Of a stretch of 64,000 bases of DNA, positions 12,993-25,613 are shown one piece after another. The first letter of the stretch is position 1, and each line of letters starts with the position of its first letter. The position numbers and the translations under genes are program-made. Under the pieces are notes generated by a model. It saw only the letters and a list, made by a program, of their open reading frames with translations, was not told the DNA's origin and ran no database searches. Source of the stretch: Dehalococcoidia bacterium (GTDB taxonomy: Bacteria > Chloroflexota > Dehalococcoidia > UBA6926); NCBI GenBank assembly GCA_963666115.2, contig CAXXET010000004.1, forward strand, positions 256,001-320,000. Direction: 5' to 3'.

Positions 12993-13029
12993 CGCTCATT
13001 GCAATCCGGAAACGCCGGGGCGTTTCCGC

Positions 13030-13132
13030 AGCCTCTTCCCTCCGCTGGCATTACCCAGCTCAGGTTCCGACGGTCGCCCCGATTCATGTGTCGGGGCCTC
13101 TCAGCCGGGCTCACCCAGCTCCCGCAAGACCC
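13030..13132 (-). promoter_or_regulatory. TPP (THI-box) riboswitch
   Basis: Minus strand GGGAGC...GCTGAGAG...GACCGTCGGAACCTGAGCTGGGTAATGCCAGCGGAGGGAAG upstream of thiB. Confidence 0.93.
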
Positions 13133-13273
13133 TATTCAGTTGTTACTGGCGACCAGTTTACCTGCCAAGGCGCGCACTGTCCATCAACCCTGACGCGCCA
13201 TTCGTTCGCCAAATCGTTAGAATATGTCGCAATGGACGGAACGCGCGTGACCATGCCGTATGCGGTCTAGGAC

Positions 13274-20664: not shown

Positions 20665-21393
20665 ATGGTCGAGCAGGGATCGAACGGCCACGGGAATCCG
20701 CCGACGGCGAACGGGCCGGGCGAGCCGCCGCAGGACGATGATCTCGTCGTCACATTCACCGGCGTCTCGGCCAAGCCGAATGAAGACGGCACTATCGATC
20801 TCATCATCGGCACGAACCGCGGCGAGATCCAGGCGATTCTGCACCCGAAAGAGGGGCAGGACGGGGCGGTCATCTTCGTGGGCGGCGGGCGCGAACTGAA
20901 GGGGCCGGCGGACGGCATCTACGAGGAACTGGCCGGAACCCTTACCGACAAGGGCGTGACATCGCTGAGGTTGGGGCAGCGGAGGCCGGAGGTGTTCATC
21001 GAGGCCGTCGCGGACGTGCTGGCGGGAATCTCATTCATGCGGGGCATCGGCGCGCGGCGGCTGGCCCTCGTGGGCCATTCGTCCAACGGCGCGGTGGCCA
21101 TAAAGTCCGCGGCGTTCTCGCCGGATGTCGTGGCCGTGGCATCGCTGTCTGGCCAGACGTTTGGCGCGCAGGACGTGGCGGAGATCGCGCCGCGCCGCCT
21201 GCTTGTGGTGCATGGGCAGGACGATGACGTGCTGCCGTATTCGGACGCAGAACGCATCTACGAGTGGGCGGGGGAGCCGAAGGAGTTGATCCTGTATCCG
21301 GGCGCGAACCATGGGCTGAGGGAGGCGGGGGCGGAGTTAAGGGAGAAGCTGGGGGAGTGGATCGCGGAGGTTGTGGGGCCGGCGGCGGGTTAG
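20665..21393 (+). CDS. alpha/beta hydrolase
   Basis: GHSSNG nucleophile-like elbow, HGQDDDV, GANH. Confidence 0.8.
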   Translation: MVEQGSNGHGNPPTANGPGEPPQDDDLVVTFTGVSAKPNEDGTIDLIIGTNRGEIQAILHPKEGQDGAVIFVGGGRELKGPADGIYEELAGTLTDKGVTSLRLGQRRPEVFIEAVADVLAGISFMRGIGARRLALVGHSSNGAVAIKSAAFSPDVVAVASLSGQTFGAQDVAEIAPRRLLVVHGQDDDVLPYSDAERIYEWAGEPKELILYPGANHGLREAGAELREKLGEWIAEVVGPAAG

Positions 21394-21737
21394 GGTTCGG
21401 TTTCGTCTTCGCCGAAGACGTAGCGGACGCGGACGTAGCCCTCCTGGGCGGCGGGGGCGTTGGACAGCATCTCATCCCGGCCGTATGACTCGCGGTCCGA
21501 GTCTTCCCGGTAGACGTTGGTGACGTCGATGGCGTGGCCTGTCGGCTCGACGCCCTCGGTGTCGACTTCCTGCAGCGCGGACACGCTCTCGATGATGGCG
21601 TCAAGCTGGCCGCCGAACGACTCGATTTCCTCTTCGGTCATGCCGACGCGGCTCAACTCCGCCAGCGAGCGCGCAAGCTCCGGGCCGGAGCGGGCGTTTT
21701 CCCTCTCGTCCTGGTTCATTCTCAGGATGCTCCGCAC
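21390..21737 (-). CDS. gatC: Asp/Glu-tRNA amidotransferase subunit C
   Basis: LAELSR...LQEVDTEGVEPT...REDS...LSNAP...YVRV. Confidence 0.9.
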   Translation of the reverse strand: MRSILRMNQDERENARSGPELARSLAELSRVGMTEEEIESFGGQLDAIIESVSALQEVDTEGVEPTGHAIDVTNVYREDSDRESYGRDEMLSNAPAAQEGYVRVRYVFGEDETEP

Positions 21738-21801
21738 GATTTCACTGATGGTCAGCGGTTATTGTACTCCGATTGGGGCGGGGTCTGTCTCCTTTCGGTT
21801 T

Positions 21802-22328
21802 GGGGCTTTCTGCCTGGTCTTGGAGGGAACGCATCGCTGCCGGTTCCTGGCTGTTCGTCGGTTCGGGCCGGTGGCGCGCTTGGGTCGCAGCCAGGGGACG
21901 CCTGACGCTGGGCGGGTCTGCTGCGCCTGCAGTTTCCTCGCCCCATGTTGGGTGGACACGGGCCTTTCGATGGCGTTGGCCGTGTCCGCCTCCCGCCAGG
22001 CGATCACGTCGCCGGACGGGAAGTTCGTCCCTCGCGCGCAACACGCGGTTAACGTGAGCGGCGGCGGTCCATCCTCGCACAGCCGCGATGCCACTTCACG
22101 GATGTACGGCATGCCCCTAACGCAAATGCCGATGGCACTTGACCCGCGTCGGACGTTGCGCAGGGCGGCCCGCCAGGGTCATGGCATGTTTTGGGCCGCT
22201 ACGCGCTCCCGTCAGCCCACCGTCACTGATCGCCCGTGGCCACGAGCAAACCCGTCGTGGTTTCCTGGCCGGGTATGTTGAGGAACCTTGGCAGCGATGC
22301 GTTCTCTTTTCCCGTGCAGGGGGCGCCC
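21802..22328. ncRNA. candidate large structured RNA or MITE-like element (unidentified)
   Basis: Perfect 15-bp IR 21827-21841/22290-22304 plus many nested stems; no credible ORF. Confidence 0.5.
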
Positions 22329-22487
22329 TCCTGTGCGCTCCCGGGGATGGTGGTGGCGGCGGGGTTGTCGACGTTTCCCGCCACTGGGGGTATGGCTCGA
22401 CGTGGATGACTTTAGGACAGGTGTTTGGGGCGCGTCAAATGGGGGTGTCACCCTTCGACAGGCTCAGGGTGAACTGGGGGGCATCTC

Positions 22488-25400
22488 TTACCTGTCCGCC
22501 CGCTTTTGTGTCCCTTCCCCGTCCGGCTCCAGGAAGACAACGCGCGTTTTCTTGCCGCCGTGAATCTGCGGCTCACGGGCCAGCTTGCGCCTCAGCAAGT
22601 CAATTGGCCCACCGTCGTCGCACAGGCTTTCCGGCAACCCAAGCACGTCAACCAACAAGCGGCGATCCAACTCCGCCCGCGCTGGGTCCTCATCGATCTG
22701 GTCGAACGGCAGAAAGCGGCGGTCTTGCAGAGATTCAAACGCATCTTTGGCGGCTGCAACCTGCTCTGCTGAAAGTTTCGTCGCGTCAAGTGTGGGGATG
22801 TTGGGGATGCCGGTGACCGTTGTTGTGCCACGGCCCGATTGCGTCTTGTTTGACACCCACCAGTGCAGGAGGAGGCCAAGCGTCGAGTTGCACCACAAGG
22901 CGAACGCGTACTCATGATCACGGTTTTCGAAGATTACCGACGGCCAGGCGCGGCCACCGATGGCGGGTCGTTCGGTCATGGCAACGATGAGGGATTGGGA
23001 GTTGAATCGCAGATCGCGGTTGTAATGCGCGCGGGTCGCTGTGCCCCAAATGCGGGCAGCCCGATTTCTGAGTTCATCTTCGGTCACTCCGCCAGCAGCG
23101 CGCTTGATCCTGGCTTCAGAATCGGGAACGATGACCAGGTTGCGCTCTTCCCTGGCCTCGTGCGCCCAGAGCATCGGATACGTCGGCACCGGCGTGGCAG
23201 CGGGCTTGATCAATTCGAACGGGCCGCGCGGCGTTCCATCGCGAGTCTGTTCCGTAATGTCCCGGTCAACGGGGCCGCGGTTCGCGATTTCGCCCAATGT
23301 ACTGATGGGCAGCTGAAGACCCTCTGCAAGTGACTGCCCACCCTGGATTAGCGTGCCTTGCCTCAAGCGCATTGCAGCCTTCGCCAATTCCACGTCGACG
23401 ATGCCTGCCAGTAGCCACGGGCCTGACTCCGGCAAGGGCGCATCGACCACCACACCAAATGAACTTTCGCCCAACTGAATGTCGGTTACACCATTGGCTT
23501 CCTCAAACCGCCGAACGAGGCCTGCCTCCAGCAGCCGCCTGACTTCCGTTCCAAGCAAGTCTCCCGCTGCGGCGGACTGAACTTGCCGGTTCAGTACCAC
23601 GAAGGCGGCCCGTTTCTCATTGCTAGCGCACGACGCGGACTCCGTTTCCGAAGCGCGCCTTGCCACCAGCAGACATTCGGCCATGCCCGTGCTTGCCGAG
23701 AACGATGACGCATAGCTGCCCGGACTCGCGACCGTGACGACGATGATGTCCTCATATTCTTCGCGCCACCGGGCGCGGATTGCATTCCATGAACTGCCGC
23801 TCAGGGCGCTGAGAGGCAGCACCATGGCAACCGTTCCGTCGTCGCGAACCTTGCGATGGGCCAGTTCGACGAACTCGGATGCCTCGCCGGCATTGCCGTG
23901 CGACGGCGCTCCCCTGGTCAACTCCCTGACGCGGGCTGACATCGCTTCCTGTTGCTCCGGAGTCGTCTCGAAGGCGGCGAACGAGGGTATGGGCACGTCG
24001 GCGTGACCGGCCTCATGGTTGGTGGGGCGGGTAAAGGGAGGGTTCATGATCACGAGATCGAACTTGCCGTGACCGACCCGCGACACCAGGTTCCGGACTT
24101 CCTGGGGCGCGCGCCCTCCTGCTGAAACGGCGGCGGCGGTGTCCATCAACGACCATTGCACCGGCTCCTCCAGCAGGTCCAGGGAGCCGACGGCGATCTT
24201 GTGGTTCTCCTCTTGACCGTTGGAAATATCGCCGTTGCTGCGCCTGCCGTTGGACGGGTCACCATTATTCATGTAGCCGTAGGGCATGGTCAGGAGGCAC
24301 TCGCCGTCGAATGGCGTATCAGGGTGACTGCCCGCCAGCATCGCCGCAGTCAGGTGAACGGCAATGTTGACCACATCCAGCCCAACCAGACCGTGACGCA
24401 TCATGGGGCCGTGCAGCGTGCGCGGATCCCCGCCGTGCAGTTCGTGCAATAGCGACATCCGCTGGTAGGCCGTGGAGAGCAGGGTTCCGGTGCCGCAGGC
24501 AAAATCGCCGATCTGGGCGCCGGCCAGGGTGTCGCCGTCGCCCCAGTCCGCGCCGCCGAGCGGTTTATGCGCGGGGAGAGCGAGCGACGCAAGCAAAGCC
24601 GCCGACTCGGGCCGCGTGTAGTACGTCGCGAGGAACTGCCGGTCGGCTATGAGTTTCTGGAACACGATGCCTGTCAGGTCATGGGAACGGGTGACGCCGC
24701 CGGCGACCAGCGCCCGCGCTGTTTTCCACAGATAGTCGAGAACGTCGTGCGCCGTTGCCGTCGCCATACTGCGCACGATCTCCCGCGCCGACCAGAATAT
24801 CGGCCAGTAATTGACTTTGAGAATACGCTCCCATTCGTCGCACAGGTCGCCGTGCGCAAAGAGGCCTTGCCAACGGAACGTTTCGACATCACGCACCCTG
24901 CGCTCCGTCCCTCCATCCCGTTCCCGCACCGTGAAACCGGATTCGGACAACGCTTCATGGAAGACGAGCGCGTTCGCAATGACCGTCATGGCCATCCGGC
25001 GCGTCTGTCCATCCGTGTCGTCTGATTGGCCCAGGACGTCTGCTATGCGTTCTCCCAGTTCGGCGCCGAATGCGTGGCGGCGCGTCAAGCGTTCGGCAGC
25101 TACCCGAACGCCATTCTCCAGCTCGGTAGCCAATGCCTCGATTCGTGGGGGCGGGACGGCGGCGCGATGCACGAGCATGGCCAGATCACGGACGCCGCCG
25201 CGAATCCACCCCGCTGACGGCAGGCGGTCAGGCGGACCGTCGAGCTGGTGAGTGTATAAAGCGTATTCCAGGTCACGCGTGGTATCGATGGCGTCGCGCA
25301 GCATGGGGCCGTCCAGATTGTGGATGGCGTTCGGATAGACGAGGGCAATCGCGGTCTCGATATGCCGGCCCGTGCCGGCGACGGTCTGGCCAAGGCGGTT

Positions 25401-25613
25401 CACCGCGTCGAGTTCGGCGCTCAGATGGTTGCTGCGCTCGGCCTCGATGACGACAGGCCAGCCACTGGCTTCTTCGATGAGAATGTCCGGGCGGCCACCC
25501 TCCTCCAGGACGTTGCCCGTGCGCTCAGTGCGCGTCGTCCAACTCCGGCGCAGCCCGTCCAGCACCTCGCCAAGGGCGACGTTCAGCGTGTGTTCATGTG
25601 TGGCGGTAGTCAT
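22488..25613 (-). CDS. type IIG-like restriction-modification enzyme (nuclease-MTase-TRD)
   Basis: N-terminal GRPDILI...IEAE, YYTRP, DFACGTGTLL, DLVIMNPPF. Confidence 0.8.
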   Translation of the reverse strand: MTTATHEHTLNVALGEVLDGLRRSWTTRTERTGNVLEEGGRPDILIEEASGWPVVIEAERSNHLSAELDAVNRLGQTVAGTGRHIETAIALVYPNAIHNLDGPMLRDAIDTTRDLEYALYTHQLDGPPDRLPSAGWIRGGVRDLAMLVHRAAVPPPRIEALATELENGVRVAAERLTRRHAFGAELGERIADVLGQSDDTDGQTRRMAMTVIANALVFHEALSESGFTVRERDGGTERRVRDVETFRWQGLFAHGDLCDEWERILKVNYWPIFWSAREIVRSMATATAHDVLDYLWKTARALVAGGVTRSHDLTGIVFQKLIADRQFLATYYTRPESAALLASLALPAHKPLGGADWGDGDTLAGAQIGDFACGTGTLLSTAYQRMSLLHELHGGDPRTLHGPMMRHGLVGLDVVNIAVHLTAAMLAGSHPDTPFDGECLLTMPYGYMNNGDPSNGRRSNGDISNGQEENHKIAVGSLDLLEEPVQWSLMDTAAAVSAGGRAPQEVRNLVSRVGHGKFDLVIMNPPFTRPTNHEAGHADVPIPSFAAFETTPEQQEAMSARVRELTRGAPSHGNAGEASEFVELAHRKVRDDGTVAMVLPLSALSGSSWNAIRARWREEYEDIIVVTVASPGSYASSFSASTGMAECLLVARRASETESASCASNEKRAAFVVLNRQVQSAAAGDLLGTEVRRLLEAGLVRRFEEANGVTDIQLGESSFGVVVDAPLPESGPWLLAGIVDVELAKAAMRLRQGTLIQGGQSLAEGLQLPISTLGEIANRGPVDRDITEQTRDGTPRGPFELIKPAATPVPTYPMLWAHEAREERNLVIVPDSEARIKRAAGGVTEDELRNRAARIWGTATRAHYNRDLRFNSQSLIVAMTERPAIGGRAWPSVIFENRDHEYAFALWCNSTLGLLLHWWVSNKTQSGRGTTTVTGIPNIPTLDATKLSAEQVAAAKDAFESLQDRRFLPFDQIDEDPARAELDRRLLVDVLGLPESLCDDGGPIDLLRRKLAREPQIHGGKKTRVVFLEPDGEGTQKRADR

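Follow-up and report, generated by a model that had tools for sequence, protein, structure and literature searches.

A probable family of large structured non-coding RNA genes in sponge-associated Dehalococcoidia

The stretch of Dehalococcoidia bacterium DNA considered here (GenBank assembly GCA_963666115.2, contig CAXXET010000004.1, positions 256,001 to 320,000; hereafter the window, 64 kb in length) contains, between gatC and an open reading frame of 1041 codons, a gap that is probably the gene for a structured non-coding RNA of about 620 nucleotides (nt). The RNA would be encoded on the minus strand, transcribed from its own promoter of the sigma-70 type, and would belong to a lineage-specific family of 2–10 paralogues per genome, found in one genus of sponge-associated Dehalococcoidia. 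The element itself is real, non-coding, strongly structured and multicopy, and it carries its own predicted promoter. Its best reading is that of a previously undescribed, new family of large non-coding RNA genes, and no description of this element family was found in the literature searched, which was covered in part and without supplementary files.

Read along the minus strand, the proposed unit would consist of the promoter, an unpaired leader, the hairpins P1 and P2, a closing helix of 10–19 base pairs (bp) around a domain of 280–555 nt, and an A-rich tail. A preliminary description of the window, made from the letters of the sequence, had left the strand open and had regarded the gap as either a large multi-domain non-coding RNA or a miniature inverted-repeat transposable element (MITE). 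A large, structured, non-coding, multicopy unit with covarying helices was indeed found, while the strict tests for a MITE failed; for the strand, promoter direction and the comparison of G-U with A-C pairs now make the minus strand most likely.

Architecture and conservation of the element

The gap is closed by the perfect 15-nt inverted repeat GAACGCATCGCTGCC (21827-21841 / 22290-22304), which extends to 18 nt at 94% complementarity and occurs at exactly two sites in the whole window. Its inward continuation GGTTCCT/AGGAACC is seen directly in the sequence and is supported by comparative analysis. Other arms proposed at the outset were recovered in the list of inverted repeats, namely GGCGATCA/TGATCGCC, GGACACGG/CCGTGTCC, CCTGGCTG/CAGCCAGG and GCGGCCC/GGGCCGC, together with arms containing GACGGGA/TCCCGTC and ACGCGG/CCGCGT. 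Of the stems drawn from these arms the family consensus retained the closing helix, the inward continuation and the GGACACGG hairpin, but not most of the long-range nested stems: those at 21999/22227, 22015/22207, 22036/22155, 22043/22144, 22089/22133 and 22107/22126 received no comparative support, and local hairpins with compensatory changes replace them. The strong folding held against 100 dinucleotide shuffles, the 529-nt core reaching −282.2 kcal/mol on the plus strand (z −4.75) and −261.0 kcal/mol on the minus strand (z −4.40), values as low as which were given by none of the 100 shuffles on either strand.

The element is one of five copies in its own 2.07-Mb genome, three of which are near-identical. 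In BLAST against this genome the stretch 21779/21816-22451 recurs twice at 95–96% identity; in the three copies A (the window), B and C the core 21816-22345 is about 99% identical with few differing positions, and the flanks are unrelated. The two remaining copies are more distant and were first picked up as partial BLAST matches. A covariance model of the conserved 5' part of the element (R1), built from 30 sequences, returned exactly five copies in the same genome. Among 30 genomes of the order it matched 16, all belonging to one genus (the genome under study and 15 of 21 others) and containing 2–10 copies each, while the genomes of four other genera of the order gave no match (0/3, 0/3, 0/1 and 0/1). 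Across 151 sampled genomes of the class the matches were again confined to this genus (6 of 7 genomes), a single 27-bit match outside it being taken as chance.

A pattern scan of species genomes listed at least 80 records, many of them matching by chance since the genomes are GC-rich. Model R1 was run on 19 of the listed records, comprising every record with Dehalococcoidia or Chloroflexota in its title together with one Gammaproteobacteria and one unclassified bacterial chromosome-level assembly, and matched 16; the non-matching records were the two assemblies outside Chloroflexota and one Dehalococcoidia record. The records with the family are Dehalococcoidia bacterium assemblies of about 1.85–2.0 Mb and one titled Chloroflexota bacterium, and the DNA runs containing the window stretch carry sponge or marine metagenome labels. 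In viral contigs the pattern matched once (L208), a match not shared by R1, and BLAST of the element against phages and plasmids gave none.

For counts of the anatomical features (Table 1) 48 distinct copies were gathered, and a structure alignment was made from the 36 long copies, the short-form copies numbering 11. Similarity among copies A, B and C stops at 22451, where a boundary box stands upstream of the −35 hexamer. The promoter noticed in the preliminary description is the sole promoter-like site within 21300-22700, where shuffles give a mean of 0.1. Its strict form, TTG[AC][CT]N-18 nt-TANNNT, is present in 38 of 48 copies with a spacer of 18 nt in every one. Of the ten others, eight show by eye a TTGCAC/TTGCGC variant with unchanged spacing; in the ninth an insertion follows the promoter, and in the tenth the second hexamer is without its last T. 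On the sense strand A makes up 22% and U 12%, i.e., the RNA would be A-rich and U-poor. The 3' limit of the repeat unit lies at 21784 by comparison with copy B and at 21816 by comparison with copy C. In one copy (L040) of the relative that holds 10 copies (genome G009) a promoter-bearing segment of about 200 nt is present three times in tandem, approximately 200–650 nt upstream of the RNA start.

The helices at the edge of the unit are well conserved in pairing. The P1 stem is 88% paired with changes on both sides in 6 of its 10 pairs, its loop varying from 9 to 13 nt. The closing helix comprises 18 pairs in the alignment, is 92.5% paired, shows changes on both sides in 7 pairs and contains 14 G-U pairs among 733; it is contiguous in 47 of 48 copies with a length of 10–19 bp (median 16). 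Its sequence differs between subfamilies with complementarity kept (GAUGC/GCAUC, GAAGC/GCUUC), and a 1-nt insertion in one strand has its counterpart in the opposite one (GCGGAUGC with GCAUCCGC). The enclosed region including the helix measures 280–287 nt in the 11 short copies and 459–555 nt in the 36 long ones. Processing at the closing helix may set this domain free.

The RNAalifold consensus of the long copies, predicted on the minus strand, has 128 pairs in 26 helices, 23 of them in the enclosed domain, where many helices show compensatory changes. Pair cells are paired in 85.6% of cases, compared with 78.5% in shuffles and 36–42% when partners are slid by 1–3 columns, and the covariation score of 0.251 exceeds those of shuffles (0.146) and of slid partners (0.055–0.074). 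Changes on both sides affect 63 of 128 pairs (50 ± 3.4 in shuffles) and 329 cells (122 ± 9.6), a number reached in none of 500 shuffles; the count of further pair types is no higher than in shuffles, 103 of 500 reaching the observed value. Since the copies are kin, the shuffle control overstates the support, a weakness from which the slid control is free.

The absence of a credible reading frame from the gap was borne out by a filter on codon-position GC used together with Pfam for gene calls near the copies: 31 of 32 copies are free of any gene-like frame overlapping the element. This filter recovers the neighbouring genes but misses small ones, for example gatC in relatives; an analysis of neighbours by longest open frame was rejected as misleading in GC-rich DNA. 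Many copies do contain open frames of 150–311 codons; these lie on both strands, in shifting frames and at differing places, and they fit the U-poor, GC-rich composition of the sequence. Aligned copies differ through insertions and deletions of 1 or 2 bases. None of 47 open frames, of which the window supplied 7 and other copies 40, had a Pfam or PHROG family of its own, the sole matches above noise, to GatC and to a PHROG of unknown function, both coming from one frame that runs into the adjacent gatC. A tblastn search against 50,697 phage records gave nothing, and neither did a search of one frame against a large protein collection. At three loci of relatives (L028:431-949, L030:2150-2671 and L038:408-1163) the gatC frame continues upstream of the GatC domain as an open frame of 173–252 codons that reaches the tail of the element, and automatic annotation may call over-long GatC proteins there.

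Table 1. Features of the locus and its near-identical copies in the same genome (window positions unless a contig is named)
Feature	Position	Strand	Details
Gene gatC	21390-21737	minus	Pfam GatC match
A-rich 3' tail	21784..21824	minus	holds GAAAGGAG at 21796-21789
Closing helix, 3' strand	21825..21842	minus	GGCAGCGAUGCGUUC
Enclosed multi-hairpin domain	21843..22288	minus	about 445 nt
Examples of enclosed-domain helices	22108-22097/22087-22076; 22058-22052/22046-22038; 21987-21977/21965-21954		consensus fold
Closing helix, 5' strand	22289..22306	minus	contains GAACGCAUCGCUGCC
Hairpin P2	22319..22342	minus	8-bp stem GGGAGCGC/GCGCCCCC, loop ACAGGAGG; stem 95% paired
Hairpin P1	22355..22385	minus	10-bp stem 22385-22376 / 22364-22355; 11-nt loop AACGUCGACAA
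P1 loop palindrome GUCGAC	22372-22367	minus	6 nt
Predicted 5' leader	22386..22408	minus	C/A-rich, unpaired in consensus fold; alignment positions 1-23; putative start
Sigma-70-like promoter	22409..22438	minus	TTGACG 22438-22433, 18-nt spacer, TAAAGT 22414-22409
Upstream boundary box	22444..22451	minus	GTGACACC here; GTGNCAC in other copies
1041-codon frame	22488-25613	minus	open reading frame; the gap lies between gatC and this frame
Near-identical copy	contig C4:429317-429985		BLAST against own genome
Near-identical copy	contig C7:131364-131995		BLAST against own genome

The P1 loop and the Shine-Dalgarno-like sites

In all 48 copies the P1 loop contains a self-complementary word of 6 nt or longer, in one of them through G-U ends only. 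The words are GUCGAC (22 copies), GUCGAC within a longer palindrome (8), GCUAGC (7), GAUAUC (5; the loop reads GUCGAU), AGCGCGCU (3), CGCUAGCG (1), GUUAAC (1) and GUCGAU with G-U ends only (1). A palindrome of at least 6 nt is found in the P1 loop of 30 of the 36 long copies, where 3.2 are expected from shuffles, and the remaining 12 of the 13 apical loops of the consensus fold show no excess of palindromes. In single-sequence folds of eight representatives the P1 word is unpaired in six. Three words occur within the genome under study: GUCGAC in the window and in one distant copy, GCUAGC in the two near-identical copies and GUUAAC in the fifth. In the P1 region 22346-22400 the window copy is about 80% identical to its near-twins on contigs C4 and C7, the core being about 99% identical. 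Since the window copy differs from these near-twins almost there alone, the P1 hairpin is seemingly exchanged as a module between paralogues.

A loop palindrome of 6 nt cannot pair with itself within one molecule, yet self-complementarity survives the changes of the word, and for this reason intermolecular pairing is proposed. The P1 loop can be regarded as the signature of a symmetric kissing-loop dimer, and judging from the sequence the RNA probably dimerises: the palindrome would pair with the same loop of a second molecule to give a homodimer, and the differing words GUCGAC, GCUAGC and GUUAAC would determine which paralogues pair with each other. In PMC12286853 such palindrome switching is taken as evidence for symmetric intermolecular kissing loops, those of OLE L9.3 and GOLLD L21a.

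The second characteristic of the element is a pair of Shine-Dalgarno-like sites. The P2 loop reads ACAGGAGG here and AAAGGAGG or AAAAAGGAGG in most copies; GGAGG stands at the end of this loop in 47 of 48 copies and is invariant in the 5' alignment. Within 80 nt past the closing helix GGAG is found in 44 of 47 copies, compared with 10.1 expected from shuffles. Both the P2 loop and the tail motif GAAAGGAG are complementary to the 3' end of the 16S ribosomal RNA (rRNA) of the same genome (GGAUCACCUCCUUUCU), and reading of the sequence and the alignment disclosed no start codon or conserved frame after either site. The GGAGG loop and the tail might bind the anti-Shine-Dalgarno end of 16S rRNA in 30S subunits, and such putative binding could make the RNA more stable or couple its function to the ribosome. 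A more far-reaching idea, quite unlikely as it stands, is that of a self-contained, promoter-carrying RNA gene multiplying in genomes, whose dimers, formed through a loop "address" differing from one paralogue to another, would show four Shine-Dalgarno mimics and dock onto or sequester 30S subunits. If this were true, the element would be a new class of bacterial RNA, and a sponge symbiont would have in it an RNA-only regulator or hibernation factor of its ribosomes.

Alternative readings of the locus

A number of observations weigh against an RNA gene on the minus strand. The only RNA run available, considered at contig level, has contigs that cover the gatC of a relative and the repeat hairpin at 22451-22483 and leave the element uncovered, a result that is neutral as to its expression. 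Between the element and gatC no terminator-like site was found on the minus strand, and the 6-bp palindrome of P1 could be a DNA site for a dimeric protein. Within the genus 6 of 22 genomes, including closed ones, lack the family; the gatC locus is occupied in 7 of 22 and the relA locus in 2 of 22. The approximately 99% identity of three cores in one genome and the presence of 10 copies at 89–96% identity in one relative are traits of mobile DNA. As regards the strand, the folding energy given above is lower on the plus strand (−282 against −261 kcal/mol), as is the consensus-fold energy in 3 of the 4 family alignments; the helices common to the predictions for both strands have near-equal numbers of G-U pairs (88 on plus, 94 on minus), and the whole consensus fold, itself computed for the minus strand, contains 322 G-U against 230 A-C cells.

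A non-autonomous mobile DNA element, in which repeats and hairpins would serve a trans-acting transposase or recombinase on double- or single-stranded DNA and any RNA would be incidental, is unlikely, despite the fact that it draws on the near identity of three copies at unrelated loci, the copy number of 2–10, the patchy presence, the varying occupancy of syntenic loci and the 10 similar copies of one relative. The promoter side, moreover, often adjoins a short dispersed repeat hairpin, and one copy has a serine recombinase gene as its neighbour, another a fragment of an IS1595-type transposase. The likeness to MITEs consists in dispersed and partly near-identical copies (five in this genome), an inverted repeat, patchy presence and copy number, intergenic position and vicinity of short repeat hairpins. 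The strict MITE reading fails because the inverted repeat is the internal closing helix and no target-site duplication was seen: conserved sequence runs about 145 nt past one arm and about 40 nt past the other, and duplications were not visible at copies A, B and C, in the comparison of the relA locus or at 5 copies of a relative, although the flanks are full of other short repeats and a very short duplication would escape notice. In the empty-site comparison at relA the intergenic DNA of the nearest relative is strongly diverged and repeat-rich, and insertion boundaries are unreadable. Many dispersed copies with target-site duplications had been named as a reason to reclassify the element as a MITE; dispersed copies were found, the duplications were not.

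Further points against mobile DNA concern the enzyme and the interior of the unit. No longer, autonomous parent or parent insertion sequence was found: BLAST against the genome finds the five units alone, and an all-against-all comparison of 24 copy contexts shows nothing longer in common except syntenic flanks. The genome gave no reverse transcriptase match and has one TnpB, dissimilar to the element, and phages and plasmids are without a match. The element is larger than MITEs (420–750 bp) and has its own inward promoter and covariation throughout its interior; neither this promoter nor the 26 covarying helices, the G-U-tolerant pairs and the palindrome switching are needed for DNA transposition. 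The neighbouring genes of the copies are varied and ordinary (gatC, relA/spoT, pdxA, hsp20, thiolase with ChsH2, NAD synthase and others). The same loci, for example gatC, thiolase/ChsH2 and NAD synthase, are occupied in several species, which fits inherited genes; the copies at the thiolase locus fall in different subfamilies. Taken as an RNA gene, the element fits an accessory family that spreads or is homogenised within genomes, with no recognised partner enzyme.

A functional RNA transcribed from the plus strand, whose T-rich left end (CUCCUUUC) would mimic the 3' end of 16S rRNA, is very unlikely. It is favoured by the lower energies of single-sequence and consensus folds and by the larger number of G-U pairs in folds predicted on the plus strand, and the G-U counts in shared helices favour neither strand. 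Against this, the plus strand contains 35% G and 22% T, and this richness in G and U raises the chance of G-U pairing. The left end has no conserved promoter and the left flanks of the copies are unrelated, whereas the conserved promoter has the opposite direction. The minus strand is favoured since this promoter points inward there and since pairs that are G-U on the minus strand become A-C on the plus strand. In 30 copies the P1 pair 38-69 is GC in 15, GU in 13 and A-C in none, and for the pair 39-68 CG is found in 24 and UG in 6, so that 13 and 6 copies, respectively, would have A-C on the plus strand. Nine pairs hold at least 8 G-U cells each and together 11 A-C cells; five pairs are rich in A-C, mostly at helix ends. 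The loop variant GUCGAU is self-complementary solely through its G-U ends and would read AUCGAC, which is not self-complementary, on the plus strand. Thus the functional RNA is probably that of the minus strand.

A cis-acting promoter-and-leader cassette controlling the downstream gene, here gatC, is highly improbable. The lack of a terminator before gatC speaks for it, together with the presence of a same-strand gene 26–91 nt further on in copies A and C as well as some relatives (gatC, relA/spoT, pdxA, hsp20 and 2-hydroxyacid dehydrogenase). These downstream genes are functionally unrelated, however, and the nearest 3' gene is oriented towards the element in 15 and in the same direction in 11 of the 26 copies that could be assigned, counts obtained with the filter that misses small genes. 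With 65 nt between it and the probable start of gatC, the Shine-Dalgarno-like tail is too distant to act for this gene.

A decayed protein or phage gene fragment that kept an RNA fold is extremely improbable: it could appeal to the open frames of 150–311 codons in many copies, but these are found on both strands, in different frames and places, and lack protein families apart from the frame running into gatC. Aligned copies, moreover, differ through insertions and deletions of 1 or 2 bases, and the phage search and that of one frame against the protein collection were empty.

Relation to known RNAs and neighbouring features

The initial statement that no known RNA signature is recognisable agrees with the Rfam searches. 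Rfam 15 at gathering thresholds, run on the whole window, left the element unmatched, and a search of 21650-22600 with E up to 10 gave three matches at chance level (11–16 bits, thresholds 34–52). The gathering score was not reached by OLE, GOLLD, ROOL, HEARO, raiA, RNase P, tmRNA, 6S, group I and II introns or T-box. A thiamine pyrophosphate (TPP) riboswitch at 13019-13135 on the minus strand (58.2 bits, above its gathering score) is the sole Rfam match in the window.

Three other candidates were also rejected. For a retron non-coding RNA, the PF00078 reverse transcriptase has no match in this 100%-complete genome and the neighbours are housekeeping genes. For an IS200/IS605 omega-RNA or palindrome-associated element, the one TnpB-type frame of the genome is unrelated to the element, the Y1 transposase not having been searched for; this Cas12f-like frame, on contig C4:202220-202417 and open for 405 codons, has no similarity to the element. 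For a CsrB/Rsm-type sponge, PF02599 (CsrA) has no match in the genome and the RsmW match reaches 15.3 bits against a threshold of 52.

To our knowledge, only a small number of large structured RNAs without an assigned function have been described in bacteria. With more than about 400 nt, covarying stems and a covarying loop palindrome, the element shows properties of large ornate RNAs, which denotes a functional class and not homology. It resembles OLE, GOLLD, ROOL and raiA in its length of several hundred nt, many covarying helices and lack of coding capacity, but has no sequence or structure match to their Rfam families. Unlike these RNAs, it is multicopy (2–10 per genome) and confined to one genus among the genomes searched, and it has an edge promoter, a long closing helix and two Shine-Dalgarno-like sites, its oligomer being a prediction drawn from sequence. 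OLE, ROOL and GOLLD form RNA-only assemblies, as recently shown (PMC12286853), and with OLE and GOLLD the element has in common one apical loop that switches between palindromes. The family would add to these RNAs a palindrome-switching loop that predicts dimers, paralogues with different loop words in one genome and two conserved mimics of ribosome-binding sites. It also bears on how an RNA gene can act like a repeat family without a recognisable transposase, and indicates that the intergenic regions of the small genomes of uncultured sponge symbionts hold unannotated RNA genes.

Separate parts of the unit have likenesses outside this class. The dimerisation initiation site of human immunodeficiency virus type 1 (HIV-1) is a hairpin with a loop of 9–11 nt that contains a 6-nt GC-rich palindrome flanked by unpaired adenines. 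P1 shares this layout, and its different palindromes would set the pairing partners; the element, in contrast, is bacterial, chromosomal and unrelated to retroviruses, and only the mechanism is compared. In rRNA operons a promoter and leader hairpins precede a long processing stem around a structured RNA. The element has the same order of parts, and by analogy its stem of 16 bp (median), which joins the ends of the domain, could be a substrate of RNase III; the RNA inside is not rRNA, however, the leader has no recognised antitermination boxes and the processing is putative. The STAB-SD of the Bacillus thuringiensis cryIIIA mRNA is reportedly an extended Shine-Dalgarno-like sequence of the GAAAGGAGG type that is close to the 5' end and not followed by a start codon, and is said to bind 30S subunits and so protect the RNA. 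The element, by contrast, is non-coding and has one site in the loop of a hairpin and the other in its 3' tail, where a stabilising role may be suggested by analogy only.

Several neighbouring features deserve mention in their own right. A dispersed repeat of about 40 nt at 22439-22483 (core hairpin 22451-22480, CACCCT...AGGGTG) has at least 37 further matches in the genome; it is often found directly upstream of the promoter side of the element, and in the present case it stands behind the stop codon of the 1041-codon frame as well. This repeat may be a terminator, an insulator or an insertion target. The distance to the promoter side of the adjacent copy is 87 nt for the large serine recombinase gene mentioned above (L025:2091-3506) and 236 nt for the IS1595-type transposase fragment (L029:1824-2168), each being a single case. 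The 1041-codon frame (22488-25613), taken in the preliminary description for a type IIG restriction-modification gene, departs from the codon-position GC pattern of the genome, its last 499 codons have no Pfam match at E≤1e-5, and it may be foreign DNA.

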